From Phyllobates terribilis (taxonomy: Eukaryota), in contig NW_027362769.1 of assembly GCF_046119375.1 (NCBI RefSeq), positions 52,762,001 to 52,826,000 on the forward strand: DNA of 64,000 bases, read 5' to 3'. The position numbers and the translations under genes are program-made. Shown one piece after another: positions 1,140 to 50,557 of this stretch; position 1 is the stretch's first letter; every line of letters starts with the position of its first letter. The notes beneath the pieces are model-generated. The model was not told the origin of the DNA, did no database searches, and saw only the letters and a list, made by a program, of their open reading frames with translations.

Positions 1140-1878
1140 CTATACCTTTTGTGGGACTGTTTTGACTGCCATCTTCAAGAATGGATATATCCTTATGGAA
1201 TCTATCAATCAAGATACCATATACTGTACTAAGGACTAAAGTTGGCATTGTGTCTCTTTCCTTCTCTTTTGAATTTATTATTGTTTATTATAAGTGGAAG
1301 GTGATTAGAAATAGGGCCATAAATAAGTATGATAGATATCTTCCCTGTTGAACTACAGTTTGATATATTATTGGTAATTATATCTGAAACTATAGTTGAT
1401 GAATTGATGTAAAGATTATATTTTGTATTTTGAACCCCTGGCCACTCTATGTATTAATTATTACAAACTGTCCGTAGGTCTAATGGGTAATTGATACGAT
1501 GGTCCATAGCCAGATCCCGAAAGTATACAATTGGGTCTATTTACCCTTTTGGTCCCAATTGCTTGCCACATGTGCGGGTATGCATGCGCGTCATGGTCTT
1601 CGTGCACTCCCCGGCTCTCGGCATTGTGCGGTGAGAACCTGTGTGAGTCACAGTCACATGACTGTCACGTAGACCTCACGTGATGCCGACAACGTGGAAC
1701 GCTCGCATTACAGTGACACGGCATGCGTCATTAGGTCCATAAGCAATATGATTGGTGGACACACATTTAAAACCTCCACCGGGATACTAGTGCACCGCCC
1801 CCTGACAAAGGTTCGCCGAACCCACCCAGCAAGTGGCATTACTTCAGTCCTCCCTATCTAAGGTATATACGGTATATA
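1140..1878 (+). mobile_element. Penelope-type terminal-repeat remnant, inverted relative to the adjacent RT; probably continues at 3509-3528 and 12101-12430
   Basis: Order is AT-rich tract, CpG-rich tract, ATTGG (1751), TTTAAAA (1766), decayed hammerhead (1802), the same layout as the intact PLE repeat at 25450-24499. Removing the Tc1 and hAT insertions via their TSDs rejoins 1878 to 3511 and 3528 to 12109. Confidence 0.55.
1795..1820 (+). ncRNA. Decayed hammerhead ribozyme remnant
   Basis: CCCC-CTGACAA-A-GG(TTCG)CC-GAA: core with G8>A (CpG-type change), UUCG-capped stem II, stem III and cleavage site missing. Confidence 0.5.
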
Positions 1879-3508
1879 CAGTACAGACCAAAAGTTTGGA
1901 CACACCTTCTCATTTAAAGCTTTTTCTGTATTTTCATGACTATGAAAATTGTACATTCACACTGAAGGCATCAAAACTATGAATTAACACATGTGGAATT
2001 ATATACTTAACAAAAAAGTGTGAAACAACTGAAAATATGTCTTATATTCTAGGTTCTTCAAAGTAGCCACCTTTTGCTTTGATGACTGCTTTGCACACTC
2101 TTGGCATTTTCTTGATGAGTTTCAAGAGGTAATCACCGGAAATGGTTTTCACTTCACAGGTGTGCCCTGTCAGGTTTAATAAGTGGGGTTTCTTGCCTTA
2201 TAAATGGGGTTGGGACCATCAGTTGTGTTGTGCAGAAGTCTGGTGGATACACAGCTGATAGTCCTACTGAATAGACTGTTAGCTGCATTTTTCTTGCCAT
2301 AATACAAATTCTAAGTAAAGAAAAACAAGTGGCCATCATTACTTTAAGAAATGAAGGTCAGTCAGTCCAAAAAATTGAGAAAACTTTGAAAGTGTCCCCA
2401 AGTGCAGTTGCAAAAACCATCAAGCGCTACAAAGAAACTGGCTCACCTGAGGACCGCCCCAGGAAAGGAAGACCAAGAGTCACCTCTGCTTCTGAGGATA
2501 AGTTTATCCGAGTCACCAGCCTCAGAAATCGGAGGTTAACAGCAGCTCAGATTAGAGACCAGGTCAATGCCACACAGAGTTCTAGCAGCAGACACATCTC
2601 TACAACAACTGTTAAGAGGAGACTTTGTGCAGCAGGCCTTCATGGTAAAATAGCTGCTAGGAAACCACTGCTAAGGACAGGCAACAAGCAGAAGAGACTT
2701 GTTTGGGCTAAAGAACACAAGGAATGGACATTAGACCAGTGGAAATCTGTGCTTTGGACTGATGAGTCCAAATTTGAGATCTTTGGTTCCAACCACCGTG
2801 TCTTTGTGCGACACAGAAAAGGTGAACGGATGGACTCTACATGCTTGGTTCCCACCGTGAAGCATGGAGGAGAAGGTGTGATGGTGTGGGGGTGCTTTGC
2901 TGGTGACACTGTTGGGGATTTATTCAAAATTGAAGGCATACTGAACCAGCATAGCTACCACAGCATCGTGCAGCGGCATGCTATTCCATAAGGTTTGCGT
3001 TTAGTTGGACCATCATTTATTTTTCAACAGGACAATGACCCCAAACACACCTCCAGGCTGTGTAAGGGCTATTTGACCAAGAAGGAGAGTGATGGGGTGC
3101 TACGCCAGATGACCTGGCCTCCACAGTCACCAGACCTGAACCCAATCAAGATGGTTTGGGGTGAGCTGAACCGCAGAGTGAAGGCAAAAAGGCCAACAAG
3201 TGCTAAGCATCTCTGGGAACTCCTTCAAGAATGTTGGAAGGCCATTTCCGGTGACTACCTCTTGAAGCTCATCAAGAGAATGCCAAGAGTGTGCAAAGCA
3301 GTCATCAAAACAAAAGGTGGCTACTTTGAAGAACCTAGAATATAAGACATATTTTCAGTTGTTTAACATTTTTTTGTTAAGTATATAATTCCACATGTGT
3401 TAATTCATAGTTTTGATGCCTTCAGTGGGAATGTACAATTTTCATAGTCATGAAAATACAGAAAAAGCTTTAAATGAGAAGGTGTGTCCAAACTTTTGGT
3501 CTGTACTG
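1879..3508 (+). mobile_element. Tc1-like DNA transposon, full length (1630 bp), defective
   Basis: TA|CAGTACAGACCAAAAGTTTGGACACACC...GTCTGTACTG|TA. TIRs of about 265 bp include the 3' end of the ORF. Confidence 0.95.
2283..3345 (+). pseudogene. Tc1 transposase pseudogene
   Basis: HTH + [26 protein letters not shown] (catalytic E>K). In-frame TAA at 2989-2991. The start-codon segment 2283-2310 is inverted. Confidence 0.92.
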
Positions 3509-6088
3509 TATGTACTATGGGTGTTTATTAGTGTTGAGCGAGCACTAAAATGCTCGGGTGCTTGAAGCTCGGGCCGAGCTCGCCGTGATACTCGGGTGCT
3601 CGACCCGAGCAACGAGCCCAATGTTAGTCTATGGGAGACTCGAGCATTTTTGCAGTGGCACCCCCGGCAGTCTTTTAAAAGCCTAACAAGTGCCCAAAAC
3701 GATAGTGACAGTGCTCAAATGACATGGGGACAGCATGGGGATCGCCCCAGGAAGCATTTCTGATCCCCAGGTCACTGCTGTCAACAACGTGGTCAGAGGT
3801 ATTAAGCCACTTTTACGGGCTCACAATAAAACGTTCAAAAACGAAAGTGAAACTTTTTTCCTGTGAAATATGTTAAGGAACATCCTTTCCAGGGAAAAGA
3901 CTTGTGTAGAAGTTAAAATAAATGACCAAAAACAAAAATACTCCTCCACACCTTCGGCTATGTTCACAAGTAGTATTTTTTATGCGTTTTTGCACTTTTG
4001 TATTGCTTTCAACTATGACAAATGCATTCACCGGGAAATGTCATTTTAACATTTTACAACCTTATCTGGCCATGTGCTGTGTGACACATGCATAAAGTGC
4101 TGAAAAGACATGGGAACAGCATGGGGAAGACCCCTGGAAGCATCTCTGACTCCCAGGTCACTGTCTAAAAGTGTGCCCATCATAAGTGATCCTTGCCGCA
4201 TCAGAAGATGCAGACTTGCAACTATCCCCATGCAAGTTCTAGTCCCAGGGCAGTGTTCAATTGTACCACCCCCATTCCTTGCAATGCAAGCGCAAGTATG
4301 CAGCCTGCCACCCACCCACCCCCAGGCGGCAATACCATACTGCTTGCTTGCTTGAACTTGAAATTGGGCCTTTTAGGCATGTGGAGGCGGAATCTGGCCA
4401 CCACGTCATGGCTGTGTTGGCGGCCTGGAATCCATACCCAGTCCCCAGTTGCCCGGCGGCCGGGTGTCCATACTCGGTCCCCAGCCGCCCCGCGGCCGGG
4501 TGTCCACACACGGTCCCCAGCCGCCTGGGGGCAGCCGGGTGTCCATAAACGGTCCCCAGCCGCCCCTATTTCTCCTTGGAACATCCCCCCACACACTTTT
4601 CTTAGCCCGACCTGCTTTAGGCAGCATTGGACGAGCCCACCAGAGAACCAGACTCCTCCGGTGGGCCCTGACTTCTCCATCGGTGGAGTTGAGAGTGCCA
4701 TGGTGAGGAGCATGATGATGATGATAGAAGTTAGCATCTGCTATGTTTTCTTTTAATGCAAGTGTAAGTGTGCAGCCTGCCACCCACCCACCCCCAGACT
4801 GCAATTCCATACTGCTAGCTTGCACTTGAAATGGGGCCTTTTAGTTTGGAGGATGCCGAAGCTGGCCACTACCTCATGGCTGCTTCGGCAGCGAGGTATC
4901 CATACTCAGTTCCCAGCCGCCCCTATTTGTCCTGGTGTGCCTTATACATAAGATTAAGCGCGTATACCAAAACATTACCTGTGCCCTCCCCAGTGCATTT
5001 AGTGGGAAGGAGAGCCTATTCCGCTGTAGTGTGTGCATGCCAAACCCCTGTTCATGGTATATGCGAATATGCCTCCCACCTTGCACCTGTCGTTGCAGAC
5101 TTGCAACTATCCCCATTCAAGTCCTTGTCCCAGGGCAGTGTTCAATTGTACCTCTCCCATTCCTTGCAATGCAAGCGCAAGTATGCAGCCTGCCACCCAC
5201 CCACCCCCAGGCTGGAATACCATACTGCTTGCTTGCTTGCACTTTAAATTGGGCCTTTTAGGCATGTGGAGGCGGAATCTGGCCACCACGCCATGGCTGT
5301 GTCGGCGGCCTGGTATCCATACTCAGTCCCCAGCCGCCTGGTGGCCGGGTGTCCCCGCTTGCTCCCCAGCCTCCAGGGGGTGGCCAGGTGTCCATACTCG
5401 GTCCCCAGCCACCCCTATTTGTCCCGGTAACCTTTCCCACACTTTTCTTAGCCTGGCCTGCTTTAGGGCAGCATTGGCCGAGCCCACCGGACTATCAGAC
5501 TCCTCCGGTGGGCCCTGGCTTCTCCATCAGGGGAGTTGAGAGTGCCAAGGTGAGGAGCATGATGAGGATGATAGAAGTTAGCATCTGCTTTGTTTTGTTG
5601 TAATGCAAGCGCATGTATGTAGTAGCGGCTAGGCCTGAGGTGGTCAGCGTTTTGGCGCATATCCTACCTCCTCCGAGGATTGCTGGATGTTTTCCTGCTA
5701 CTATCCAAGTTCTATGACTCCCTTTAAAACAAAGCTTCAGGTGATAAATGATGGATGAGGTAGTGGCAAAGGAGAAAGAGCAGGAGGAACAGGGACCATT
5801 CACATCAATATCAGGCCAGTCAACCAGATATGTCTTGTAGGATATGTTTCTGTAACAAAAGGAGCGGTTCGGCTACACAGTTATAGGGCATACAGTGAGT
5901 GCAATGCCTACCAAAAATTTCGAGGCACTCCAATGCCCCTTGGAAATGACATGGAGGTCAGAGGGCGTTAACTAAACCTTTTTTTCCATTTATAGCAACT
6001 GGGTCTCCTGTGCACTGTTGGCCTAAGCATTGAATGGAAGGCTTTCCAAAAATTATGAGGAACTGCAATGCCCCTTACAAGAGCCATG

Positions 6089-7506: not shown

Positions 7507-10500
7507 TTATGTTACTCTGCTGTCATTTGGTGGTGATGAGAAGTCTGGCCCAATCCAGCCCTTGTTCATTTTGATAAGGGTCAGCTTGTCAGCATTGTCA
7601 ATTGACAGGCGAGTGCGCTTATCAGTTATAATTCCCCCAGCGGCACTAAAAACACGCTCCGATAACACGCTAGCGGCAGGGCAGGCCAGGACCTCCAAGG
7701 CGTACAGAGCGAGTTCATTCCAAGTGTCCAGCTTGGATACCAAATAATTAAAAGGCACAGAGGAATCACGGAGGACGCTGGTATGGTCGGCAAGGTACTC
7801 CCTCACCATCTTTTGAAAGTTTCCACTCCTTGTGAGAGTACCCTCCGCCTCAGGGCCTGTAAGCTGTGCGGGTGTCAGAAAACTGTCCCAGAACGTTGAC
7901 AGTGTTCCCCTGCCTCTGCTGGATTGGAGTTGCATCTCTCTCGCCTGTACGCCTTGGTTGGGCAACGAACTGTGACCTCTGCCGCTAGCGTGTTCAGATG
8001 GGAATTTTTTTAAGAGTTCTGCAGCAAGGGCCTTCTGGTACTGCCCCATTTTTGTAGACCTCTCCACCTCAGGAATAAGAGAGTGAAAGTTCTCCTTGTA
8101 GCGGGGGTCTACAAGTGTCACCAACCAGTAATGACTGTCACCCAACATTTTGACAACGCGAGGGTCACGGTTAAGGCAGCGTAACATAAAGTCAGCCATG
8201 CGTGCCAGACAGGTAACGGGCAAGATTTCCGTGTCCTCACCAAGATGACGACTGACCATGCTCTCCTCCTCCTCCTCTTCCTCCTCCCCCCTGTCCTCAG
8301 GCCACCCACGCTGAACTGACGGTATGACACTTGTACAGGTACTACCGTCTACAACGCATGATAGCAGATCCTGTTCTTCCTCCTCCTCCTCCTCCTCTCC
8401 CTCATTGTCCCCCAATGCACATTGGCATGAGATGAGGCTGGGCTGTGTGTAATCGCCCGCTATGGCTTCTTGATCCATCTCATCATACTCTGGCTACAAT
8501 GCCTCCTCTTTAATTCTATGCAGAGAGCGTTGCAAAAGACAGACAAGTGGGATGCTGACACTAATGATGGCGTCATCGCCACTCACCATCTTGGTGGCCT
8601 CCTGAAAGTTTGTCAGGATGGTACATATGTCAGACATCCAGGTCCACTCCTGAGGTCTTATGTGTGGAGTCTGACCTGAATATCGACGACCTTGTTGCAG
8701 CTGGTACTCCACAACTGCTCTCTTCTGCTCACAAATCCTTTGCAACATGTGGAGGGTAGAGTTCCAACGTGTGGGGACATCACACACCAGTCGGTGTGCC
8801 GGAAGCTGCAAACTCTGCTGCAACACAGCAAGGGCGGCAGAAGCTGTAGCCGACTTGCGAAAATGAGCTGACAGGCGGCATACTTTCACGAGCAGATCTG
8901 GCAACTCGGGGTACAATTTAAGAAACCGCTGAACCACGAGGTTAAGCACATGAGCCAGGCATAGTACGTGTGTGATCTCACCTCGCCTCAGAGCCGCCAC
9001 CAGGTTACGGCCATTGTCACACACGACCATGCCGGGATGTAGGTTCAGCGGTCTCAGCCACAGATCTGCCTGCTCTTTCACAGCTGTCCACAACTCACAA
9101 GCAGTGTGAGGTTTATCACCTAAGCTTATGAGTTTCAGCACAGCCTGTTGCCGCTTGGCGGAGGCTGTACTGCAATGCTTCCAGCTTGTAACTGATGTGG
9201 TGATATCTGAGATGGAGGCTGAACATGAGGAGGAGGATGCGCAGGAGCTGTACACTGTGGGGGCAACTCTGACTGACATAGGGCCCGCAATCCTCGGTGT
9301 GGGGAGGATGTGTTCCGTCCCAAGGTCTGACTGGGTCCCGGCTTCCACTATGTTTACCAAGTGTGCCGTCAGAGAGCTGTACCGTCCCTGGCCACAAGCA
9401 CTTGTCCACGTGTCCGTTGTCAGGTGGACTCTCCCAGTAACTGCGTTGTTGAGGGCACGACAGATGCTTTGGGACACGTGCTTGTGTAGTGCGGGGATGG
9501 CACACCGGGCAAAATAGTGTCGGCTGGGGACCGAGTACCGAGGGACGGCCACCGCCATAAGATTGCGGAAGGATTCCGTCTCCACCAGCCTAAAAGGCAG
9601 CATTTCCAACGCAAGCAGTCGTGAAATGTGCGAATTTAGGACTGTGGCCTGTGGGGCGTTAGCTGCGAATTTCCGCTTTCGTTCAAAGGTCTGGGATATG
9701 GACAATTGAACGCTGCGGTGGGACGTGGACGTGGACGTTGATGCTGTTTCTTGAGAAACTGCCATAACAAGTGAAGACTGAGAGGAGGGGGCATTTTTAC
9801 ATGCAGTATGGACAGGGGATTGCCTTGCACACACAACAGGGGGTTCTATTGCATGCACAACAGTGGAAAAAGCAGTGGTGACACCCGCTGACACTGGTTG
9901 TGGACCCTGGGTTTCGCCCCACAAAGTCGGGTGCTTTGCTGCCATGTGCCTGATCATGCTGGTGGTGGTCAGGCTGGTAGTTTTGTCACCCCTGCTGATG
10001 CTGGCATGGCAGGTGGAACATACGGCCTTTTTGGGGTTATCAGCAGAGTCTTTAAAAAAATTCCAGACTCTGGAAGACCTACCGCTTGTACTGGCAACGT
10101 CCCTCGTGTTGGTGTTACGGGGAACGGTTGCCTGCCTTCTGTCTGCGGCCACCACACTGCTTCTTCCTGCCTGTTGGGGTACTCTGCCTCCCTCCCCCTG
10201 TGTGCTGCTGGCCTCACTCTGCATGTCCTCCTTCCACGTTGGGTCAGTTACTAGATCATCCACCACCTCCTCCTCTTCCACTTGCGCACCACGATCCTCC
10301 TCCTCACTTCCTGGCAATTGTGTCTCGTCATCGTCCACCTCTTGTGACAGATTGCCAACGTCGACTTCCTGTGGCCGTGGCTGTTCAAATATTTGGGCAT
10401 CGCAACATGGGATCTCCTCTTCCACCACTTCAAGCGTATCAGGCGAGGGGCCCAAATATGGAAATGGACCAGTGAACAGCTCTTCAGAGTGTCCAAGTGT

Positions 10501-10860
10501 GGGATCACTTGCTGTCTGACGACACTCGGCATGGTGGGAGGAAGGAGCATCAGGGTGAGGAGGAGTATGCGGTCGAGACTCACGGCTACTAAGAGTTGAC
10601 CGTGTGGAAGACAGACTGGAGGTGGTGGTGCCCAGGTAACTGGAAGTATTATCTGCTATCCAATTAATAACCTGTTCACACTGATCAGTTCTCAATACTG
10701 GTGTTGTTCTGTGCTTCCCTAGTAATTTGGTCAAGAAGTGGGAGCGAGAAGATGTGGCTGTTGGTTGTGGCACATTTTCACCTTGGCCACGGCCCCGTCC
10801 TCTGCGCGAACCATCACCAGAACGTCCACTTCCACGTCCCTTGCCACGCGCCTTGCCCAT
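7507..10860 (-). pseudogene. hAT transposase (BED finger, DDE, C-terminal dimerisation domain), about 1117 codons with one in-frame TAG at 8494-8496
   Basis: ORFs 8494-10860 and 7507-8478 are in the same frame. Motifs: VWNFF..CSTC..SMIRHMAAKH (BED), LTTDTWTS, VVCDNGRN, CLAHVLNL, TRWNST, SERVFS. Confidence 0.93.
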
Positions 10861-15785: not shown

Positions 15786-15942
15786 CTATCTAATTTAATA
15801 TGGTAAGAGAATACCCTTAAACCCCTTAGTCACTAAATAACGGGAAAGAGGTACCTATAGTTTAAAAGTTATATTAGGGGTGGTATTCTTACCAAAATTG
15901 TAGACTGGGAGCAGGCTGGTCAGGCAGAGGTCACAGGGCATT

Positions 15943-15987
15943 CCCCGACGCGTGTTTCGTGGCGTCTAAGGCCGCTTTCTCAAGGGG
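15943..15987 (-). ncRNA. Type I hammerhead ribozyme, U3-A8 core variant
   Basis: Minus strand reads CCCC-TTGAGAA-A-GCGGC(CTTAGAC)GCCAC-GAAAC-ACGC-GTC-GGGG. Confidence 0.7.
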
Positions 15988-18900
15988 CAGTAGTGGTATC
16001 CACAGTGAAGGACCTTTTTAAATCTTTCGCGCCGGTCACGTGCACTGTCACGTGACCGGTCACATGATCAGAGGGGGGCGGGTGCGGATGTCCCACAGGC
16101 GTGAAAATGGCGCATGCGCCCGCCGAGTCCTACGTCAGACGCCAACCCTGAGCCGTCAAGACCTTCCGCGCACGCGCGGGCACGCCGCAAAGGAATGCGG
16201 AAGTGCCCGACCGCGCGCGGACGCCATATAGACAGCTGGGAGCGCGTCCAACCGCAAGAGAGTCGGCGCATGCGCACCACATCCGGGGACAGCGGCACCT
16301 GCCATTAGGTGTACACAAGTAATGGGGTCCAAATCAACAACCAATCATATACAGAGGAAAAAGTTGAAATAAGCAGATGGATAAGTGGATGATCCAGTAT
16401 ATAGTATATTTAGTCCATCAGTGTTATTTTTCTTTCTCTTTTCCTTTATGATCATTTTTGTCATCCCATCCTCTGTGCGATCTGAGGTATAAGCGTCATA
16501 GAGTTCACTTGAGACAAATAAGAGAAAGGTCCAGTGCAGTGCAGAACGAAAAAATTATTAAATTATCTAGAAAAAAGCTAAAGAAATAAACCAGTTAAAA
16601 AAAATAAAGTAAAAGACATGAGATTAAAAACAAAAAACAAATATAAACCCGCAACCACTTGCGCCCTAACGGACCCAGTAAGGGCAGCTGGAGGGGTCAA
16701 CATGAGATATAGTGTAGTTCAAAAATACATAATATCCTATTACAAAAATGAAGAGAACGATAAGGACTCATTCAGACCATGAGGTGATAATGTACCAAGT
16801 CCTGGAGAGTGTTGTTCACTTGGTTGGCTGTTGTGAAGGGGTTTCTCTTCACCATGGAGATTATTCTGTGATCATCCACCACTGTTGTCTTCCGTGGGCG
16901 CCCAGGTCTTTTTGCATTGATGAGTTCACCAGTGCTTTCTTTCTTTCTCAGGATATACCAAACTGTAGATTTTGCCACTCCTAATATTGTAGCAATTTAT
17001 CGGATGTTTTTTTTCCGTTTTTGAAGCTTAAGGATGGCTTGTTTCACCTGCATGGAGAGCTCTTTGACAGCATGTTTACTTCACAGCAAAACCTTCCAAA
17101 TGCAAGCACCACACCTCATATCAACTCCAGGCCTTTTATCTGCTTAATTGAGAATGACATAATGAAGGGATTGCCCACACCTGTCCATGAAATAGCCTTG
17201 GAGTCAATTGTCCAATTACTTTTGGTCCCTTTAAAAACAGGGTGGCACATGTTAAGGAGCTGAAACTCCTAAACCCTTCATCCAATTTTAATGTGAATAC
17301 CCTCAAATGAAAGCTGAAAGTCTGAACTTCAACTGCATCTGAATTGTTTTGTTTAAAATTCATTGTGGTAATGTCTAGAACCAAAATTAGAAAAATGTTG
17401 TCTCTGTCCAAATATATATGGACCTAACTGTATGTATGCCCCTTCCCGGGTAAATGTTTTTCAGCCCTTGCACAAGGTGCATTGGCTTTACCAGTGTAGC
17501 AGTCCCACTCCTTCCAAATGTTAAAAATTATTTTTCAGAGGCACTCATCTACGTCTCTTCAAGGGTGTATCGCATTGCCTCCGTCTAATTTTTGTTATGC
17601 CTTGAACATAATGCATCGGCTTTACCACTCTGAGTCCCACTCCTTAACAATGTTAAAACAATGTTTTCAGAGGCACTCCTCTATTTCTCTTCCAGGGTGA
17701 ACTGCAATCCCTCCTTTAAATATTTACTAGGACGTGCACTAAGTGCATAGGCTTTAGCAGTGAAGGAATCCCACTGTTTTTAAAATTCTCACTCTGAATT
17801 TTGGGAGGTCAAGCTTAACCGTTGGATCACAGGGAGCGCCACCATTCTGCTCTGACTAGCGTAGGGACAAGACGCGGCTGGAATGAGGGGCAGTGTCAGG
17901 CTCTGAGAGTGTCATTGTAAAACAGCCTCTATGTGGGCAATGTGCCCCAGGCTGCGTGGGTGAACTTTTCAAAACGCCTTGTTACTTCTTTTAAAAGGTG
18001 TAACAAAAGCAGGAATCATTTTTTGGCACATTAGTTTACAGTCTTGCAAGGATTTAATGAAGCTGTTACATGGGCGTTTTGCAAAATTTTTGATATTTTG
18101 GCATCAGAAATCCTATAGTGTTATCAGCACCTTTACTTGTTGTACCCAGGGCTGGACTGGGACTGAAATTCAGCCCTGGCATTTTCAAGAACAAAGGCCC
18201 ACGTCGTGTAACTTCTGTAACCTTGCTCTCTAAATAGTCTAACTACAGGTCAGCAACATACAATGATGAGTGGTTTGTGCTGCGGACCTCCATATCTGAC
18301 AGCCACTGAATTATGGCCAATTTAGAAGAGCCAATAATCATGAAAAGTGTGTTGGTGACAGCACGCCTTCCTGATTATGGACTCATTTAAATAGGTCAGT
18401 AATCACCTGATATAAGAGCAAAATGGTTACTTGTCACATGCGATGATTTTTAGCCAGCTTAAAAATCATGGTTCTTGGTAGCACATTGCTCTTGGTATAC
18501 AGGACATGTGCTCCTGAGAACATGACATTGTACGTGCACACAACATGTTAACAATCGCTGTGTGCACAGAGAAGTGCGGACCACCTGTGTGGAAATGCCG
18601 TATAGGACACTGGCTGACATGTATATAGCAGATCAGTAGCCATGTACATGTGGTAACAATGCAGGGAGACTGCAGCTGCAGCGCGCGCCGTCCTGCTCTC
18701 CTCCTGGCAGGTGTAATGACAGTCAGGTCTCATTCAGACGTCTGTTTCTCCTGTAATGTTCTATCTGTGGTTTTCATGATTTAATTTTCATTATAGTCTA
18801 TGGTGATGTTCATTTGCCCGTATTTTTTTGCAGACCGTGTCTCCCAAAAAAAAAAATCAGTTATTTTCGTTTTTATCAACGTTACAGTAAAAATAACCTC

Positions 18901-20559: not shown

Positions 20560-21235
20560 GAAGCAACATGAACCTAGTTCTGACTTTTTTTCACATTATA
20601 AACTTATTCATGGAAATGAGACCAAACTTGGACGTCTGATTCTTTTTTTCAAACAATTGATTGTCCAATTTCCTATTAGCCAACATGTGGACTCATTCTA
20701 TATATATATTGTTCCCCTAGTGAAAATAACATTATACCCCTGAGGAAGCCATTCAGTGGCGTAACGCGTGGCGCTCTGGCTCTGTATTGTTTTCCCACTA
20801 TCTGCCTGTCTCCCTGTTGGTGCACTTTCTTTGTGGTAGGTATAGTATTTGCTGTATACCTTCTATTTGAATATATATACTGGGCTTAGACAGCAATGTG
20901 CCCACACATGCACCGTTTGAATGGAGTAATCTTATCTTATTATTTTTCTAATGCAACTGCATATATTTTGATACAGTTGTTCTATAAGGTAGCACTTGTA
21001 ATTGCAGACACTCGTCAGATTAATATATTTGTGGGCAGATTTTGGGGAATAATCTGTATTGCCTCTATATTATTATATGTATTACACTTATATTTTGATA
21101 TACTACATACCTTCACGGGTATTTGCTACATGTTTTTAAGTATGTTTTAACTGGAATGTGTTTAGTGTTCCTAATCAAATTTCTTTATAATTTTTCAATC
21201 CTTGCGGTTTGATTTTTATTGCTTATTAAGAATAC
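20560..21235 (+). mobile_element. Penelope-type terminal-repeat remnant
   Basis: CCAAT at about 20664, TATATATA at about 20699, decayed hammerhead at 20737, AT-rich tail. Boundaries approximate. Confidence 0.5.
20737..20773 (+). ncRNA. Decayed hammerhead ribozyme
   Basis: CCC-CTGAGGA-A-GCCA(TTCAG)TGGC-GTAAC-GC-GTG. A13>U and H17>G substitutions make it likely inactive. Confidence 0.6.
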
Positions 21236-21799
21236 TTGCTGCCTAGCATATGTACCCCTTGTTCTCTTCAAAGTTTCCAGTCTCTCTTTGGGAGGTTACT
21301 GGCACAGTATTCCTTTATTAAATATGTGGTGCTAGAATTTTTTTTCTGCCATCGAACTGGACCAGTCTCACTTAAATACAGCGTGGGAGCCAGTGGCGTA
21401 CCGCCAATGGCGGCAGACCACGCGACTGCTATGGGGCCCGTGAGCCGGGGGGCCCCATAGCAGTCCAGGGGTGGACATACCGTCGCTGGTGCAGCTGCGC
21501 CGGGTCCCCACCATGCAGCTGCACCAAGGGGCCCGCAAGGTGCATCTGCTCCCTGCACGCGGCGGTCAGGGAGCGATCCCTGCAGCTCCCCTGCTGTCAG
21601 GAGGAGAATAGCAGCGGAGCTGGAGGGTTTGTCCTCTGCTTCCTCCCTGACCCAGGCGCGCGCAGCTTGATCACGTCATCGTGCAGCGCGCGCCTGGGTC
21701 AGGAAGAAAGCTGCCAGCAACCAGGAGGATGCTGCTGCAGGGGAGCAAGCTGAGGAAAGTTGTTTTTTTTTTTTTTTTTTTTTTTACTGAAATGCTGGG

Positions 21800-24498: not shown

Positions 24499-25346
24499 AA
24501 TGACCAAAACAAAAGCAGATCACCAAAGGTGAAATGCCATCTCCAAATCACTAAACCAAAAACCCAAACAAAAATCTAATAGGTATCTAAAAGTAAAACA
24601 AGTAGAGATATATCCTGAAGAAAAATATAAAGAGATACCCAAGACTCATTGGAGATCTATACAAAACATAATCTTTATTCATAGCAACATGTTATTCTAG
24701 ATAAATACATCACATACAGAGGTATTGGGGAAAGAGCAGCTAAAACAATAGGATACAGGGTATATAAACCCAAAATAGTAAGGAGACCGTAGCTAAAGCC
24801 CCAGATAGGTATAAATATCACATAAGCAATGATTACATATAGATAAAATATATCAGAGATGACTAGATTGTTTATGCTGAAATAAAGTGCATAGGACAGT
24901 GATTGAATCAAAATAAAACAACCGCTGAAGGCACTATACCATGCTGGCTCAGGGTAAGTATAAGAATCTGAAGTATCTCAGTCCATCTGAGTAGAGATGA
25001 GAGACCAGGGACTGATATAAATGAACAGCCTAACATTAGTTTAATCATATGACAATATACCGGCCAATGCCGTATAGATAATTACCTTGAGTCATGATAG
25101 AGATCAGGGGCTCGTGATAGCGGTCTGCAAAACGCCTCGACGCGCGTTTCGCCTCAGCTTCGTCAGGAGGCGTGGTTAGAATAAGAGGTGGGTCCTATTT
25201 ATATGAATGAAAAGTGTGTAACTGCCAATTGGCGCGCTATCCCCCGCGATGCCGCGCCCCCAGCGATGACGCGGACCGGCGTGCAGCCCGCGGGATGAGG
25301 AGGAGGAACGACGTCATCCCCCCCATCACCAAGGCAACCACGCACA
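24499..25346 (-). repeat. PLE 3' terminal repeat (pLTR)
   Basis: Matches 29144-29992. By eye the only difference found was GAAATAAAGTG vs GAAAAAAAAGTG. Confidence 0.95.
25133..25172 (-). ncRNA. Minimal type I hammerhead ribozyme (3' repeat copy)
   Basis: CGCCTC-CTGACGA-A-GC(TGAG)GC-GAAAC-GCGC-GTC-GAGGCG: 6-bp stem I, intact core, palindromic loop III, GUC cleavage triplet. Confidence 0.9.
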
Positions 25347-26029
25347 GGCCCCGACGCCGCCGGAGCGCCGCAGCGCGCGAGAGAGAGCGCGTCCACAGAT
25401 AACCAGACAGGAGGGACGGAGTACAAACACAGGTACTCAATGCTCACTAGTGGCGTCATTGCTGCCAGGGGGTGGCCAGTCCCCTGCCACCAATGAAGAC
25501 AGATAGGAGGACAGTGGGGAATAATAATGACGACCTGCCCTGACCTATAACAGTAGAGGGTATAGGACCAATATCTAATAAATCATACCAGATACCATGA
25601 GGTCCTGAGTTATAGTCAGGATTAATAATCCCCCGAATGCTATGCACAGTATGTCAAAATGGGTTTGCATAATTAATGATAAACCAGTGGAAAAAGCCAG
25701 TACAATAAATATAAATACAATAGTTATATAGATGGCTAAATCCATGTACATAAATAGATAGACCACAAGTAGACAGAAATCTTGATAGGAGACCGTCTGG
25801 AAAAATCACTCAAAGGTGTATGATGTTTAGTCCATTATTTAGTAAAACGTCAGAGCCTCGTGTCAGAATAGACAAAAACGATGATGAAGTGATAGTCAAT
25901 AGATGACACAGCACTAGGGATGTCAAAAGGAATAAAATCAATAATGAGTAAATACAACACAACTCATGTGGGAATAAAAGACAGCATTTATAGGAACCCA
26001 TCATTAAAAGTAGCGCAACGAAAAGGTAT

Positions 26030-28504
26030 TTACAGAAAAGACTTGAAGCTAACAGACTCGTTCAAACCAGAGGGCATAACCGTGTCCAATGTGATAATCC
26101 AGCGTGTCTCTTTTTGGAGCAATTTTTGTTTAGTATTGCCTCCCCTAATGCCCATATAGACTCTATCGATGCCACGAGCTGAAAGGCCCTTAGGGTTACA
26201 GCCGTGGGCATCGAAAAAGTGCCTGGGAATAGATTTAAGTTGTTGAGGGTCTGAGCAAGAGGCGGCATTTTTTATATCTCTAATATGTTCCTGAATGCGG
26301 ATTTTGAGGGGTCTTGTGGTCATTCCTATGTAGACTAGATCACACGGACATCGAATATGATAAACGACCGCTTCCGTTTCACATGTGATGTGATGTAAGA
26401 TTTTAAAGTTTTTATTCCTACCGGAGTCTGAAAATTCACCCGTTTTGGTGATATATTTACAGATTGAGCATCTGCCACAGGCGGAACAGCCCCATGGTGG
26501 GCCCTTACTGCCAGGGAAAAATTGTTTTTTTGGAGGGACATAGTGACTTCTGGAGACGATATCTCCGAGGGTCTTAGCTCTACGCCATGTTATAAGTGGT
26601 TGTTTAGTAAGCTGACCGCGTAGATCACGGTCCGTAAGTAAAATAGGCCAATGTTTAGAAAAAATCTTTTTAATATTGATCCAATTAGTATTAAATGTAG
26701 TGATAAATCTAGGTAATATATCAGTGTTTGTTTTCTTTTTAGCATTAGACAGTAGGCTTTGTCTACTAATGGCTTTAGCTCGTAAGAAGCCACGTTTAAT
26801 GTCCTGCTTTGGATAGCCCCTATCCTGAAATCTACGAGATAGATCATATGCTTGATGGCGAAAATTATTGTCGTTAGAACAGATACGTCGTGCCCGTAAA
26901 AATTGCCCTACAGGGATAGAGCTTTTTAGTTTTGGCGGGTGTGAGGAAGAATAGTGTAATAAAGCGTTAGTGGAGGTCTCCTTCCTGAAAATGTCAGTCT
27001 CAATTCTATTATCTTCTGATTTGGTGATAAGTAAGTCTAAAAAGTCAACTGATGTCTGACTATATTTCCAGGTTAAATGAATATTACGAGTATTTTTATT
27101 GAGACTGTGAAGGAATGTCTCCAATTGCGAGATGGAGCCCTGCCAGATAAACAATATATCATCAATATATCTTGACCAGGACATGACGGCTTCATGGCCC
27201 CGTGTGTTAAGGACCGTATCCCTCTCCCACAGCCCCAGGAACAAGTTAGCATATGAGGGCGCACAAGACGCCCCCATTGCTGTGCCCTGGAGCTGCAGGA
27301 AGGGGCGGTCCTTAAACACAAAATAGTTGTGTCTAAGAATAAAATCCAAAAGAGAGAGAATGAATAGTATAAGATCTGGATCAAGATTTGTCATGGTCAG
27401 AAAGAATTGTACAGCCGTCATGCCCTGGTCGTGACGTATCGAGGTATATAAGGACTCCACATCACAAGTAACAAGCCACATATCTTCCTCAAGAGTAATC
27501 CCGTCTAGTCGTTTTAGAACATCAGTGGTATCCCTCACGAAAGATGGGAGAGTCTCCACGCATCTTTGGAGATAAAAATCCACGAATTTACATATAGGTT
27601 CACAAAGACCCCCAATACCCGAGACAATGGGTCTGCCTGGTGGGTGGAGGGGGTCTTTGTGAACCTTGGGCAAAAGATAAAAGGTCGGCACCACTGGATG
27701 TTCCAAAAGTAGTGCCTCTTTCATTTTTGGAAGGATAACCAAGTTATCCACGGCATCATCCAGTAGATGTGAAAGTTCTCTCGCAAAGGTTGTGGTAGGA
27801 ATGTTATCCAGCCTTCTATAATTTTGAACATTATTAAGTTGTCTGAAGGCTTCACGTTCGTATGCTAGGACAGACCATAATACAACGTTCCCGCCCTTGT
27901 CCGCCCTTTTGATGACAATGTCCTTTAGGTTTTTGAGTTCACGGATAGCCTGTCTTTGTGGTCTAGACAGGTTATCCTCAAGGATACCCTCCCTAAGTTG
28001 GAGAAGGTCTTGTTTAACTAACTTGACAAAAATGTCAACCTGAGAGCAGGTAGACAGGGGCGGGAACGCATGTGAACGTCTATACAGATGTGTGGGGAAT
28101 TTCGTAGTATCATCAGCGCTCTGTTCAGCCGCCAAAGACTCGAGATTCTGTAAGGCCCGAATCTCGGCATCCGAAGAGAGCGCTTCTGATCTATGTGGTG
28201 ATGGACTAAAGTACTTCTTAAAGATAAGCTTACGAGCGAATAATTCAAGATCCTTAATGGTGGTAAAGTAATCATAGCCCTCCACCGGTGAAAAAGAGAG
28301 GCCCCTAGACAGCACCTCAATCTGTGGCTTAGATAGAGTGTGTTTAGATAAATTAATTACCTTTAAGTTCTCTTTCCTCTCTTTTGTCTGAAATTGTATG
28401 GATGATTTTTCTTTTGTATATATGGAGTCCTGAGCTGCTGAAGAGTGTTTATGGGCAATGCCTCGCCGGGCAGAGCCCGTTTGTCTAAAGAATGTCCTCC
28501 ACAT
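26030..28504 (-). CDS. Penelope-like RT + GIY-YIG endonuclease polyprotein (824 aa, uninterrupted)
   Basis: VINLS, VIKRADKGGNVV, GRPIVS, CDVESLYTSI, GTAMGA, RYIDD, CSACGRCSIC linker, VVYHIRCPCDLVYIGMTTRPLKIRIQEH. Confidence 0.95.
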   Translation of the reverse strand: MWRTFFRQTGSARRGIAHKHSSAAQDSIYTKEKSSIQFQTKERKENLKVINLSKHTLSKPQIEVLSRGLSFSPVEGYDYFTTIKDLELFARKLIFKKYFSPSPHRSEALSSDAEIRALQNLESLAAEQSADDTTKFPTHLYRRSHAFPPLSTCSQVDIFVKLVKQDLLQLREGILEDNLSRPQRQAIRELKNLKDIVIKRADKGGNVVLWSVLAYEREAFRQLNNVQNYRRLDNIPTTTFARELSHLLDDAVDNLVILPKMKEALLLEHPVVPTFYLLPKVHKDPLHPPGRPIVSGIGGLCEPICKFVDFYLQRCVETLPSFVRDTTDVLKRLDGITLEEDMWLVTCDVESLYTSIRHDQGMTAVQFFLTMTNLDPDLILFILSLLDFILRHNYFVFKDRPFLQLQGTAMGASCAPSYANLFLGLWERDTVLNTRGHEAVMSWSRYIDDILFIWQGSISQLETFLHSLNKNTRNIHLTWKYSQTSVDFLDLLITKSEDNRIETDIFRKETSTNALLHYSSSHPPKLKSSIPVGQFLRARRICSNDNNFRHQAYDLSRRFQDRGYPKQDIKRGFLRAKAISRQSLLSNAKKKTNTDILPRFITTFNTNWINIKKIFSKHWPILLTDRDLRGQLTKQPLITWRRAKTLGDIVSRSHYVPPKKQFFPGSKGPPWGCSACGRCSICKYITKTGEFSDSGRNKNFKILHHITCETEAVVYHIRCPCDLVYIGMTTRPLKIRIQEHIRDIKNAASCSDPQQLKSIPRHFFDAHGCNPKGLSARGIDRVYMGIRGGNTKQKLLQKETRWIITLDTVMPSGLNESVSFKSFL

Positions 28505-29103
28505 TCTTCCTCAGAGGTAGATGAAATGCTTGAGGCCGACTGAGACCTAGTGCGTAATTTATTGTGTCTATTTTTATGATGCCAGTGGTAAATATTCTTG
28601 GATTGATAATCCTCAAGATCCCTCAGATATTTTTTTGTTTTGAAATTCTGGATCTCAGATTCCCATTTGGAAAGTTCTTCCTCCAAAGATAGATCAAAGT
28701 TTTTATACTCATCTATTGGGAGTAGAGATTGAATTTTCTACCACAGGGAATCAATCTCTTTTTCGATAGGTTCTAGCGCCTTTTTATCGGCACCAATAAG
28801 AATTTCTAGTAGAGTGCGTGAACATTTAGTAAGTGTCTCTTCCCACTTACCAGTGAGCACTGAATCTTCAGTGTCCAAAGTGGGAAAGAGTTGGATGCGG
28901 AGCCCTCTGGGTATAATATCTTTACATAGATAAATTTCTAAGGCGGCTTTGTTCCACCATAGTTTAATTCTTTTTTTGAGTAGATCTTTAATTTGCTGCT
29001 TCAAGTCTTTAATGTCACTTGTATCCTTAGAGGTAGTTGACTTCTCACCAAATACCGTCCCGAGTTGAATAACTCGGGCTTTATCTCTCTTTCTAAAGTC
29101 CAT
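28363..29103 (-). pseudogene. PLE upstream ORF (about 246 codons, one internal TAG at 28738-28740)
   Basis: ORF-track pieces 28738-29196 and 28363-28686 are in one frame. ATG at 29103 (MDFRKR). YL..DIIPRGLRIQLFP..KWEETL resembles the PLE N-terminal motif. Different frame from RT, overlapping it by 142 nt. Confidence 0.75.
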
Positions 29104-29143
29104 AAATCCTGTTAAGGAATCTGCAAAAACAATGCAATCAAGT

Positions 29144-29992
29144 AATGACCAAAACAAAAGCAGATCACCAAAGGTGAAATGCCATCTCCAAATCACTAAA
29201 CCAAAAACCCAAACAAAAATCTAATAGGTATCTAAAAGTAAAACAAGTAGAGATATATCCTGAAGAAAAATATAAAGAGATACCCAAGACTCATTGGAGA
29301 TCTATACAAAACATAATCTTTATTCATAGCAACATGTTATTCTAGATAAATACATCACATACAGAGGTATTGGGGAAAGAGCAGCTAAAACAATAGGATA
29401 CAGGGTATATAAACCCAAAATAGTAAGGAGACCGTAGCTAAAGCCCCAGATAGGTATAAATATCACATAAGCAATGATTACATATAGATAAAATATATCA
29501 GAGATGACTAGATTGTTTATGCTGAAAAAAAAGTGCATAGGACAGTGATTGAATCAAAATAAAACAACCGCTGAAGGCACTATACCATGCTGGCTCAGGG
29601 TAAGTATAAGAATCTGAAGTATCTCAGTCCATCTGAGTAGAGATGAGAGACCAGGGACTGATATAAATGAACAGCCTAACATTAGTTTAATCATATGACA
29701 ATATACCGGCCAATGCCGTATAGATAATTACCTTGAGTCATGATAGAGATCAGGGGCTCGTGATAGCGGTCTGCAAAACGCCTCGACGCGCGTTTCGCCT
29801 CAGCTTCGTCAGGAGGCGTGGTTAGAATAAGAGGTGGGTCCTATTTATATGAATGAAAAGTGTGTAACTGCCAATTGGCGCGCTATCCCCCGCGATGCCG
29901 CGCCCCCAGCGATGACGCGGACCGGCGTGCAGCCCGCGGGATGAGGAGGAGGAACGACGTCATCCCCCCCATCACCAAGGCAACCACGCACA
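29144..29992 (-). repeat. PLE 5' terminal repeat (pLTR, truncated in its CpG-rich part)
   Basis: Direct repeat of 24499-25346. Confidence 0.95.
29779..29818 (-). ncRNA. Minimal type I hammerhead ribozyme (5' repeat copy)
   Basis: Identical to 25133-25172. Confidence 0.9.
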
Positions 29993-36112: not shown

Positions 36113-36199
36113 TAATGGAAAAAAATATTTTCCTAGTTAATATCAGCGAGAACAAATGACCGCCATACACAACACAATCCACTATACCAACACCAATAA

Positions 36200-48019: not shown

Positions 48020-48455
48020 AGAAGCACTCCTCTTATCAAAGTTTGTATCCTCTTAATATATTGCAATCATATTATACAGCACTGTGCACTTACAATTGCT
48101 CATTTTGCCCTTCTATCAAGCTAATTATTCTCTTTTCTCTGCTTATGTAGAAACAGGATGTCTCTTGTCCCTGCAGAAATCATTCCCTTCTTCACCAGCT
48201 GCTCCATCCTCCCCTGTCATTGACTTCTGCAGTGACTTCTGACTCGTACATGGAAAATTGACCTCCTGTTTCTACATAGAGCTTAGAAGGATTCAGCTAG
48301 TCAGTTTTTAATCACGTGATGTCAAAGACCTAATGGATAACAGAAGAATTAGCTGGGTAGAAAGGCAAAATGAGCAATTGTAAGTGCACAGTGCTATGTA
48401 ATATGATGACTGCAATATATTAAGAGGATACAAATTTTGATGGAGGAGTGCTTCT
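48020..48455. mobile_element. T2/Kolobok-type MITE
   Basis: TTAA|AGAAGCACTCC...GGAGTGCTTCT|TTAA. Confidence 0.85.
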
Positions 48456-50311
48456 TTAAAGGGGTTCATCCCTCATTATCAGCACAAGAGCACCATCATC
48501 TTCAGTACAAGGGCACCACTACCTTGCCTACTGACTTCCTGCATGATCAACAGTTCGGACCGGCAATATTGTCTCACCGATGGCCTAAATTATGCAAGCC
48601 TAATGCTGCTATATGAGGCAGCTTTGACCTTGCAACATCGGAACAGTGTGCTAGCACTAAACCTGACCAGGATCAGGATAACAGCAAACCTGGCTAGCTT
48701 CAGTGCAGTGCTTACAAGCTCAATGCAAATGAGCTTGTCCACACTATACATGTCTGTTCACTCCTGCCAGTTGGTAGCAGTGGCTGGTAACCTGTGCAAT
48801 GAGCTGTAGACCAACAGCAAAATAGTAATTATCCAAAGAACTGTGCACAATTTTAATGAAAAGTGAATGGGTAAGTTGGTTGTTTTTACAAGCACATTCC
48901 TATTAGATCCATCTTTTAAGGCAGCGGTAGGGAACCTTAGGTTTGCGGACTGTTTAGGGCCCTTGACTTTTTATCTGACCACCGGGCAGATTCCCGGTGA
49001 CTGTAGTGTTTGGGCCAGCAGCTGTATTGTGATGGCCGCTGGCCCATTAATTTCTTCTTGCTCTGTGAGCATGCGCACACAATGTTCACTACTGAATGCT
49101 GAGGCGCATGCAATGAAAAATGACGTCCTGACACCAGTGCCAGCGTCAGGACGCACTTTGTAGAGTTAGCGCACAATTTGTACGGCCCACGAAGGACTGT
49201 ATAAATATTCCAATGGCTCTTGGCAGAAAAAAAAAAAGATTCCCCACCCCTGTCGTGGCAGGTAAAAATACAGTAGCCCGTCTGTGTCTGCCTCTGACTA
49301 ACTAGTACCTCCCTCCTCCTCTCTCGCTACACATATCTTACCTCAGTGATCTGAAAATCTGTCTTCTCTGAGGGTGAAAGGAGAAAGAAGTAAATTTCTC
49401 TTCGCTGGATCCAGTATCTTAAAGGGAACCTGTCATATTGAAAATATCTGATCTGCAGGGAGGATGTAATGGAACAATAAGAGCTGATCAGATCGATGTA
49501 CACCGTATTCCAAATTATTATGCAAATTGGATTTAAGTGTCATAAAGATGTATTTTTGGGTTTTTCAAATAAATTCATGGATGGTATTGTGTCAGGGCTC
49601 TTTGGATCACTAAAATCTCAAACACCTGTGATAATTAATTTGCCAAGTTCCACGTTATTAAGCAGGCCACAGGTTTCAAGCAATATGGGAAAGAAAAGGG
49701 ATCTCTCTGCTGCCGAAAAGCATCAAATAGTGCAAATTCACCGGAGCAGCTGGTGAAATACCATTATAAAGCAGAAAACAGGTATTTGAAGTTCTTGGTG
49801 CCTCTGGGAGTCCTGCAAACCTCAAGGTGTAGGATCCTCCAGAAGCTTGTAGTTGTGCATAAACCTACTATTTGGCCGCCTCCAAACAGTACTCACAAAC
49901 AGAAATGGTTGCAGTTGGCCCAGACATACATGAAGACTAATTTTTAAACAGTCTTGTTTACTGATGAGTGACGTGCAACCCTGGATGGTCCAAACGGATG
50001 GAGTAATAGATGTTTGGTGGATGGCCACCATGTCCCAACCAGGCTGGAACATCAGCAAGGAGGTGGTGGAGACATGGTTTGGGTCGGAATCATGGAGAGA
50101 GATCTGGTAGGCCCCTTTAGTGTCCCTGAAGGTGTGAAAATGACCCCGGCAAAGTACATAGTGTTTCGGAATTACCACTTTCTTCCATGGTACAAAAAGA
50201 ATAACTGAGCCTGTCGTAACAAAATCATTTTAATGCACCATCTCAAGCTGCAAAGCATACCTTTTAGTCATTGGCTGCTATGGGCATGAAAGGAGAGAAA
50301 CCCATGGTGTA

Positions 50312-50557
50312 CATAAACGTGAGGGAAAAGGGGAAAACAAGAGAGTCAGCTCACCAGATCCATGTTGTAAAGAAGCTGTGTAAATCTTCTCCCAGGACCA
50401 GGTGCAGTTAGCAGACAGCAGAAAACAAAAAATCTCCAGCGAAGAATCAAGTAAAACTTCAGTATTTATTAGATCATCATAAAATAGTAGCAGTTCCTCC
50501 ACTGGTTTCCAACCAACGCGTTTCGGCTACGCCGTACTCATGGTTTTGTTTTCCTGC
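50312..50557 (-). mobile_element. 246-bp hammerhead-bearing retro-insertion (PLE-type mini-element)
   Basis: 14-bp TSD AAAC[C/T]CATGGTGTA at 50298-50311 and 50558-50571. Hammerhead near its 5' end and AATAAA internally. No coding potential evident. Confidence 0.8.
50511..50545 (-). ncRNA. Minimal type I hammerhead ribozyme, A3-U8 core variant
   Basis: Minus strand reads AACC-ATGAGTA-C-GGC(GTA)GCC-GAAAC-GC-GTT-GGTT. Confidence 0.75.

Follow-up and report, generated by a model that had tools for sequence, protein, structure and literature searches.

The terminal repeats (pLTRs) of Penelope-like elements (PLEs) carry hammerhead ribozymes, and the locus analysed here raises the question where transcription of such elements begins relative to the ribozyme and which RNA is copied. 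To our knowledge, among PLE promoters only the TATA-less one of Drosophila has been mapped. The window, that is, the whole stretch of 64,000 nucleotides from Phyllobates terribilis (contig NW_027362769.1, positions 52,762,001 to 52,826,000), holds one near-complete element (A) and four decayed terminal repeats from other families (B to E). Coordinates are listed in Table 1.

Table 1. Features of the window, with strand, basis of the call and landmarks.
Feature	Position	Strand	Basis	Landmarks
Element A, near-complete, putatively Neptune-like Penelope element	24499..29990	-	repeat, sequence and translation evidence	target-site duplication 29991-30003 and 24486-24498
5' pLTR of A	29144..29990	-	direct repeat and sequence	
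TATA box TATAAATA, 5' pLTR of A	29842..29849	-		CCAAT 29874-29878
Intact minimal type I hammerhead, 5' pLTR of A	29778..29819	-	Rfam and strict scan	predicted start A29819; predicted cut after 29785
Predicted 5'-UTR intron of A	29261..29731	-	motif scan only	AATAAA 29324
Broken coding region of A	26033..29103	-	translation and Pfam	
3' pLTR of A	24499..25344	-	direct repeat and sequence	
TATA box TATAAATA, 3' pLTR of A	25196..25203	-		CCAAT 25228-25232
Intact minimal type I hammerhead, 3' pLTR of A	25132..25173	-	Rfam and strict scan	predicted start A25173; predicted cut after 25139
Element B, solo pLTR fragment of another family	15787..16801	-	relatives adjoin PLE ORF	TTTAAAAA 16015-16022; hammerhead 15943-15987
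Element C, inverted 5' pLTR of a minus-strand element	1105..1878	+		ORF fragment 8-1102; ATTGG 1751; TTTAAAA 1766; hammerhead remnant 1795-1821
Element D, truncated pLTR	20662..21275	+		CCAAT 20665; TATATATA 20699-20708; hammerhead-like motif 20737-20771
Element E, stub (mini-element)	50311..50560	-		family match 50311-50545; hammerhead 50511-50545; target-site duplication 50561-50570 and 50301-50310

Terminal repeats of the window

Element A is inserted in a Tc1-like transposon and flanked by a 13-bp target-site duplication; the empty form of the transposon was seen in contigs joining 24483 to 29989. Its pLTRs are direct repeats of 846 bp with a spacing of 4645-4646. The first base of the 5' pLTR precedes the predicted start site by 171 nt, which leaves the promoter in place. 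Both pLTRs have 30 nt between TATAAATA and stem I, and both contain the complete hammerhead motif, comprising the CUGANGA, GAAA and UH core, stems I and II and a palindromic stem III (stem I measures 7 bp in the 5' copy). Against Rfam RF00163 the motif scores 29.3 bits, short of the gathering score of 34. Stem II covaries among relatives and, when two copies of the ribozyme were cofolded, their palindromes paired. Cleavage at the predicted site of the 3' pLTR would release a leader of 35 nt.

The predicted intron of element A has the donor AG/GTAAT and a pyrimidine-rich acceptor; no spliced copies of family A were found with a sampling pattern that contained the splice donor and thus excluded them. 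The coding region consists of an upstream frame with a premature stop, followed by a stop-to-stop frame of 826 aa. This frame matches the reverse transcriptase profile PF00078 (E 2.4e-07), carries a CX2-5CXXC linker motif at residue 675 and, in its translation, shows YIDD, DKG and CPCDLVYIG with His residues further downstream; no Pfam match to the GIY-YIG profile was obtained in it. Judged from its sequence, element A is an EN+ PLE, in which reverse transcriptase is followed by a C-terminal GIY-YIG-type nuclease. A zinc-finger-like CX2-5CXXC linker between both domains marks PLEs of the Neptune/Nematis type (PMC8557442), and the designation Neptune-like is suggested by this linker and the clade's known presence in amphibians. 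Hallmarks of PLEs are further seen in the direct-repeat pLTRs and target-site duplication of element A and the inverted pLTR of element C. A non-LTR retrozyme, made up of non-coding tandem units that each bear a hammerhead, was rejected as an assignment: copies adjoining PLE ORF sequence occur in every window family and in the genomic families F0, F1 and F4, and the window contains no tandem array of units. Contigs of four runs, whose RNA origin is only guessed, gave thin coverage, with no site where many molecules begin or end.

A preliminary description of the window had placed a TATA-like box about 30 nt upstream of the hammerhead in four different terminal repeats. The boxes and stem I were found again in all four, with stem I of the 3' pLTR of A shifted from 25172 to 25173 and TATAAATA correctly placed at 25203. 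Each box lies upstream of its hammerhead, at distances that range within the window from 29 to 38 nt: 29 nt in element C, 35 nt in element B (16022 to 15987) and 38 or 36 nt in element D (from 20699 or 20701 to 20737). CCAAT or ATTGG boxes, also reported upstream, are present in three of the four repeats (25232/29878, 1751 and 20665) and absent from the 15900-16330 region of element B, where the described tracts (two copies each of CACGTG and GCGCATGCGC) do occur.

The hammerheads of the four repeats are intact only in element A. Element B has a U3:A8 variant with private substitutions in stems II and III; element C has lost about 21 nt internally, spanning GAAA, stem III and the cut site; and element D, like its aligned relatives, has GUAA in place of GAAA and G at position 17, from which its ribozyme is likely inactive. 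The motif is incomplete in copies C and D, with variant cores in B and E, the latter being A3:U8. Element E is flanked by a target-site duplication of about 10 bp and has no TATA box in its window copy. It had been described as beginning 12 nt before its hammerhead; the family match begins instead at the stem I edge (50545), and the 15 nt at 50546-50560 match nothing in the family.

Putative promoter motifs across the genome

Spacing was surveyed in 91 subfamilies, sampled genome-wide by the ribozyme core alone and represented by one sequence each, using a generic TATA matrix. A TATA-like 8-mer at -41 to -32 from core base C3 was present in 44 of 91, against a background mean of 5.7 and maximum of 13 (p 1.6e-28). 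The genome-wide check proposed earlier thus showed the spacing to be non-random. With a strict threshold, 19 subfamilies remained (0.8 expected). Chance AT-richness was ruled out by shuffling of -60 to -10 (mean 4.6, maximum 10), and flanking target DNA by the occurrence of the box in copies at different loci. CCAAT or ATTGG at -75 to -43 was found in 27 of 91, compared with 1-9 in ten control windows. Of the 47 motif-free representatives several are visibly truncated, though this was not demonstrated for all. The TATA distance had a standard deviation of 2.6 nt from C3, 3.0 from the stem I start and 3.3 from the cut site, none of these anchors being clearly tighter. Within one lineage of 15 subfamilies (mean identity 66%), the TATA letters and an A at -4 vary little or not at all. 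The view that one promoter-ribozyme cassette recurs across dissimilar repeats was borne out, being shared by families with proteins only ~30-45% identical.

We consider it probable that the CCAAT and TATA motifs, which keep a fixed spacing to the hammerhead that follows, act as an upstream polymerase II promoter in the pLTRs of Neptune-like PLEs, that the 5' edge of stem I is where capped RNA starts, and that the element's enzyme copies this RNA mostly uncut. The layout would be LTR-like, with the promoter upstream and the ribozyme as first transcribed element. It seems highly improbable that the TATA box belongs to a U6-type polymerase III promoter or a bidirectional one instead of driving sense polymerase II transcription. 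U6-type promoters do have a TATA box about 30 nt upstream, and antisense TATA scores are high (36 subfamilies versus 44 sense at the loose threshold, 6 versus 19 at the strict one). A two-way TATA was also proposed for a rotifer pLTR (PMC3846280). Against this, TATAAA outnumbers TTTATA by 15 to 3; the CCAAT boxes, the predicted intron and T-runs just downstream suit polymerase II, and the extra G described below suits an m7G cap. The box may yet be used in both directions.

Truncation junctions at the predicted start and cut site

Junctions at which copies end on the 5' side were collected in F0, F1, F4 and window family A, with sampling downstream of the cut site by exact patterns that favour young copies on first contigs. 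Heuristic calling and de-duplication left 151 events, of which 79 fell within start -1 to +5, seven nucleotides at TATA+30 that correspond to the 5' edge of stem I (F1 26/49, F4 42/78, F0 7/15 and family A 4/9). The peak lies in F1 and F0 at a pyrimidine-purine (YA) step 30 nt downstream of TATA, with exactly 30 nt between the TATA start and the A at -4. F4, in which a (TA)n run leaves no single TATA position, has a peak spread over -4 to 0, with -3 as common as -4. Family A had none of its nine events exactly at the predicted start (-7) and four at -5 to -2, none of them with G. Where the preceding base could not be explained by an inverted arm, an extra G stood before 9 of 10 exact-start junctions, compared with 21 of 66 elsewhere (32%; Fisher p 7e-4), and before both junctions in loci fetched after this prediction was noted; in 15 of 25 exact-start events the neighbouring base could derive from the inverted arm. 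An untemplated 5' G has been read as a copied cap in work on L1 (PMC9341517).

Transcription likely begins at the front edge of the hammerhead motif, and the RNA that is reverse transcribed is likely mostly capped and uncut. The pile-up at TATA+30 and the extra G lend indirect support to the earlier placement of the start on the 5' arm of stem I. Three steps here are inferences: that copies end where the RNA began, that a copied cap gave rise to the G, and that transcription is by polymerase II.

A structural origin of the pile-up is unlikely; in this case cDNA would fold back on its own copy of stem I, or a nuclease would trim to the base of the hairpin, G would be an ordinary terminal addition by reverse transcriptase and the AT-rich box would be no working promoter. 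Such an origin would fit the many junction copies that are head-to-head inversions with microhomology, the G before about a third of other junctions and the family A junctions off the predicted base. Yet the peak persists in non-inverted copies (F1 10/21, F4 18/33), lies in F0 at -4, inside a longer stem I rather than at its edge, and coincides with TATA+30, while both TATA and CCAAT show conservation and an excess at their positions. With a promoter-driven start, each stub or head-to-head fold-back would represent the front end of the RNA in full, with priming at the tail.

The description had further proposed that self-cleavage removes a short capped leader or trims tandem read-through to unit length; removal of the leader gains partial support. 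Cut-site junctions are indeed enriched (12 of the 54 events downstream of the start; p 6e-6), and in one copy, L329, sequence ending at the cut site is joined to the start site. That cleavage in this manner makes the working template, possibly as a circle, is nevertheless very unlikely in our judgement. The model was proposed in PMC4209133, and conservation of the core with swaps of C3:G8 to U3:A8 and A3:U8 would indicate selected catalysis. On the other side, 12 of 151 junctions at the cut compare with 79 at the start; family D spread despite its probably dead core; and for the anole element the cut site was neither the beginning nor the end of any read (PMC11167929). In vitro, this Poseidon element mainly used uncut RNA for insertion (PMC11167929). 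Many copies also run unbroken through promoter, ribozyme and tail; since promoter and ribozyme are kept upstream of the start, such copies need uncut read-through templates, which speaks against trimming to unit length. Cleaved RNA is disfavoured as the main template route; most RNAs that were copied seem not to have been trimmed by cleavage. On the promoter model, copies that retain the promoter would derive from read-through RNA that passed the downstream pLTR uncut, and ribozyme cleavage would affect a minority of transcripts, freeing a capped leader of 35-38 nt.

PLE hammerheads act as dimers, in which the 5' arm of one copy grips the cut strand of the other; such dimers are reportedly the subject of Luense et al. 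2017. Because of this dimer action, a read-through 3' copy would cut the 5' copy. The start site could then be a built-in ribozyme switch, the 3' copy cutting and decapping the 5' copy while itself being spared, a possibility that we regard as doubtful. In the 15-subfamily lineage the predicted start falls within an extended stem I, with the outer arm upstream; the capped copy would keep only a 3-bp stem I arm, and the outer arm, covarying with its partner, would occur only in RNA read through from the upstream pLTR. The promoter-bearing 3' end would stay intact for reverse transcription, and decapping would end translation of that RNA. The alignment gives the outer helix weak support: RNAalifold on the 15 sequences recovered stem II and a stem I of 3 bp, leaving out the outer helix, which was 72.7% paired versus 67.8% after shuffling (18 of 500 shuffles as high), and its covariation score was reached by 51 of 500 shuffles, with about 4 of 15 rows seemingly shifted by one column. 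Outside this lineage, family A included, the helix was absent (own below cross in 15 of 34, p 0.99).

Known systems and significance

Minimal type I hammerheads in metazoan PLE pLTRs were described by Cervera and De la Pena 2014 (PMC4209133). Those studied here resemble them in ribozyme class, palindromic stem III, an extra base after A9 and the U3:A8 variant, and the elements in being abundant in amphibians, mostly as solo truncated copies. That paper never mentions TATA, and its available text contains no mapping of starts or junctions; it proposes cleavage and circles as template, whereas the present junctions point mainly to uncut capped RNA. The promoter of Penelope in Drosophila virilis is internal, lacks TATA and has Inr/DPE (Schostak et al. 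2008, PMC2377424); a 75-nt intron begins 46 nt after the start (PMC2377424), and at the 3' end of this intron the hammerhead begins (PMC4209133). Taken together, these accounts would put its start ~120 nt before the ribozyme, and not at the ribozyme edge as here.

Pen2a_Av of Adineta vaga (PMC3846280) likewise has a putative TATA and Inr in its pLTR, an inverted 5' pLTR, a tail and a target-site duplication; in the accessible part of that report the TATA is a single predicted motif, unlinked to a hammerhead and without spacing across families or junctions. The Anolis carolinensis Poseidon element PAc (PMC11167929) shares the hammerhead in the pLTR and uncut RNA as main substrate, with both strands cut and extended; it differs in clade and in its ORF, which starts inside the ribozyme, and its promoter and start are unmapped as far as that account extends. 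The plant LTR retrozyme NbRZ1 (PMC12029980) also has a polymerase II promoter, with a mapped start, upstream of a terminal-repeat hammerhead. This ribozyme, unlike those described here, is of type III, cuts efficiently and removes the cap in vivo, and the retrozyme depends on Gypsy; TATA is unmentioned in the portion available.

The pattern of TATA-hammerhead spacing and start was not found in the main texts of published work; pLTR promoter annotations could exist in paper supplements. It bears on the role of PLE hammerheads and on which RNA these elements copy, and makes predictions at single-base level, namely a start at the -4 A and a capped fragment of 35-38 nt. It indicates which 5' end ribozyme assays should use, a point that may be relevant to reports of low in vitro activity. 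If the proposed start is correct, vertebrate Neptune-like elements would rely on a promoter placed upstream as in an LTR, with transcription beginning at the first bases of the ribozyme. Each of the thousands of solo hammerhead stubs would then be a full copy of the front end of a capped RNA, and genomic junctions would give a free 5'-RACE for start and cut.

Putative promoter motifs and ribozymes in the window

The motif positions of the preliminary description were borne out on re-checking the sequence. Measured from the start of the TATA-like box in the window copies of the Penelope-like element (PLE) terminal repeats (pLTRs), stem I lies 30, 30, 35, 29 and 36-38 nt downstream and the hammerhead core base C3 37, 37, 39, 36 and 39-41 nt downstream. 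Intact hammerheads were found only in element A (see table), at both of its sites. The 10.6-Gb assembly, apparently amphibian by its repeat content, supplied 15 aligned loci for each family of elements B to E, the other PLE copies of the window. Over these related loci, the hammerhead of element B is a U3:A8 variant and that of element E an A3:U8 variant; that of element C is intact in the family and deleted in the window copy, and family D carries GUAA and G17 throughout its aligned copies. Element C is truncated by a Tc1-like element at 1872.

In family E (window 50535-50541, minus strand; L067-L080), almost every aligned copy has A3:U8 where the standard core has C3:G8; this core-pair swap is absent from the variants given in the accessible part of PMC4209133. 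Family D (window 20737-20771; L052-L065) has multiplied with GUAA and G17 and with CCAAT and TATA retained; its ribozyme core is probably dead. G17 was also seen at two further loci, L145 and L147.

Within each window family, the position of the TATA-like box is constant across copies at separate loci; in family E the box lies at about -36 in longer copies, the window stub being without it. Because copies of all five families adjoin PLE coding sequence (~34-45% identity to the element A protein), the sequences indicate that the promoter-ribozyme cassette is of old shared ancestry and not an independent invention.

Element A is inserted in a Tc1-like element, and its coding region is disrupted by one premature stop and a frame change. 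Its long frame contains RT, DKG, a CX2-5CXXC linker and a GIY-YIG-type end, a predicted layout that fits the Neptune/Nematis type as described in PMC8557442. Among the other repeats, the DIRS-type frames appeared RNase H/methyltransferase-like and tyrosine-recombinase-like; a Pfam search of the 633-aa frame gave no match.

Repeats annotated in the window
Feature	Position	Strand	Details
Element A, near-complete Penelope-like element	29990-24499	minus	846-bp direct repeats, 13-bp target-site duplication
DIRS-type retrotransposon-like overlapping long ORFs	61400-63533	minus	frames judged by eye
hAT-like transposase with BED zinc finger (PF02892)	7507-10923	minus	one interrupting stop codon
Array of ~67-bp units rich in CCAAT/ATTGG palindromes	31190-33700	both orientations	
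Tc1-like element	1872-3515		
Tc1-like element	51273-52349		
Tc1-like element	54757-56310		
Tc1-like element	50923-52582 (enclosing 51273-52349)		358-aa open frame, terminal inverted repeats matching 97%

Genome-wide TATA-to-hammerhead spacing

Three exact ribozyme-core patterns were searched in the genome, giving 289, 1925 and 2967 matches, with 0 for reversed controls. The 150 matches examined comprised the first 30 per list and 60 with distinct stem II among the matches listed, these 60 being selected blind to upstream DNA. Following removal of two loci with G17, the remaining 148 were grouped into 91 subfamilies at 75% downstream identity, the first member serving as representative. TATA-like boxes were scored with a matrix.

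A TATA-like 8-mer started 41-32 nt before C3 in 44 of the 91 representatives (background windows: mean 5.7, maximum 13; shuffled control: mean 4.6, maximum 10). At the strictest threshold the count was 19 versus 0.8, literal TATAWA occurred at the expected place in 28 versus 1.7, and CCAAT/ATTGG lay immediately upstream of the TATA window in 27 versus 1-9. With coarser grouping, the box was present in 14/46 versus roughly 3. Antisense scores were raised too (36, 16 and 6 at three thresholds), so the direction of the box is only partly encoded. A PLE ORF match was obtained for 37/90 loci with 1.5-kb flanks. The spacing measurement proposed in the preliminary description upholds its claim of a cassette recurring across repeats; the feature is real and conserved, and it belongs to a class of elements already known.

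Junctions at the predicted RNA start

Copies were sampled by patterns downstream of the cut site in four families, which avoided selection for whole ribozymes. Matches numbered 1633 for F1 (100 listed taken), 140 for F4 (first 100), 41 for F0 and 32 for window family A; flank filtering left 97, 100, 33 and 29 copies for scoring. In 166 copies the 5' junction lay either downstream of C3 or at most 150 nt before it, the remainder extending further upstream; these gave 151 de-duplicated events, both arms of a single head-to-head insertion being scored as two. Within the 7 nt from -1 to +5 of TATA+30 fell 79/151 events, with ~5 expected if uniform. Restricting the count to non-inverted copies left the excess in place for F1, F4 and A; for F0 it was lost (1/5). 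The most frequent junction base in F1 and F0 was the A at -4, 30 nt downstream of the TATA start and invariant across 15 subfamilies of the F0 lineage. F4 junctions were spread over -4 to 0, and family A is a weak case (0/9 events at the predicted -7, four at -5 to -2). At the 3' side, F1 copies ended preferentially at two points separated by ~30-40 nt, as is usual for PLE tails.

A G preceded 21/25 events exactly at the predicted start, where the family base is C or T. In 15 of these 25 the neighbour base possibly came from the inverted arm; in the remaining 10, G was present in 9, versus 21/66 at other junctions (Fisher p 7e-4). The extra G was predicted before the last loci were examined, and those gave 2/2. 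For L1, an untemplated 5' G has been interpreted as copied cap (PMC9341517, in part). Mainly because of this excess, the peak is read as a Pol II start; it is good indirect evidence for the earlier proposal that RNA starts at the ribozyme 5' arm.

Probable self-cleavage and proposed replication

Twelve events began ≤1 base from the cut, out of 54 lying 3' of the start window (p 6e-6). Five of the twelve, from F1, fall in a TG run that leaves their position ambiguous by a base or two. At locus L329, ribozyme sequence ending at the cut is fused to another copy whose 5' end is the start; that the first tandem copy ends exactly at the cut suggests template switching to the 5' fragment freed by cleavage. 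L329:290-370 (minus strand) and L322 both have, ahead of the insertion, short tandem repeats of the ribozyme front end. Given these cut-site events and L329, set against the start peak, cutting probably occurs in vivo and the RNA copied into DNA would be mostly uncut. In vitro work on an anole element, as far as the accessible text of PMC11167929 goes, agrees with uncut RNA as the main copied form. AATAAA follows the cut by ~10-25 nt in several families (F1, L182 family; F4, L083 family; several singletons), a layout resembling the LTR R region; in element A it lies within a predicted intron (29324), not shortly after the cut.

For subfamilies of the F0 lineage, the computed pairing between post-cut sequence and the 21 nt preceding the start is stronger within a subfamily than across relatives (15/15; mean -15.3 versus -9.9 kcal/mol; shuffled control -9.4 kcal/mol). 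RNA from -4 has a computed stem I of ~3 bp (about -2 kcal/mol), versus -12 to -25 for read-through RNA. Strand pairing in the double hammerhead is one basis for a hypothetical switch, in which a read-through 3' copy with the outer stem I arm would cut and decap the 5' copy and itself be spared. Double-hammerhead geometry (PMC4209133, in part) is the other. Since alignment-based tests of the outer helix were weak, no own-over-relative pairing was found outside this lineage (15/34) and a transcript beginning at element A's predicted start would contain all 7 bp of its stem I, this dimer asymmetry is a hypothesis for the F0 lineage alone.

Hammerheads in pLTRs (PMC4209133), a start site within the pLTR (PMC2377424; review PMC6765202) and a putative TATA in one rotifer pLTR (PMC3846280) were already known from the portions available. 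No published report of fixed TATA-to-hammerhead spacing or cap-marked junctions in PLEs was found in a literature search covering mainly open-access main texts, nor was either found in the accessible parts of bioRxiv 10.64898/2026.07.22.740005, PMC7229834 and PMC12029980.

We infer that an upstream CCAAT/TATA promoter would initiate RNA at the front of stem I and that the PLE protein would prime reverse transcription at the tail. Reverse transcription reaching the capped end would yield stubs such as element E, priming on both DNA strands would yield fold-back copies, and read-through RNA passing a downstream pLTR uncut would yield promoter-regaining copies, as at the 5' end of element A. The ribozyme would cleave a minority of RNAs. 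Of the earlier self-cleavage claim, cutting itself is favoured by the enriched cut-site junctions; the present analysis corrects the role proposed for cleavage, the copied RNA being, on this evidence, mostly uncut.
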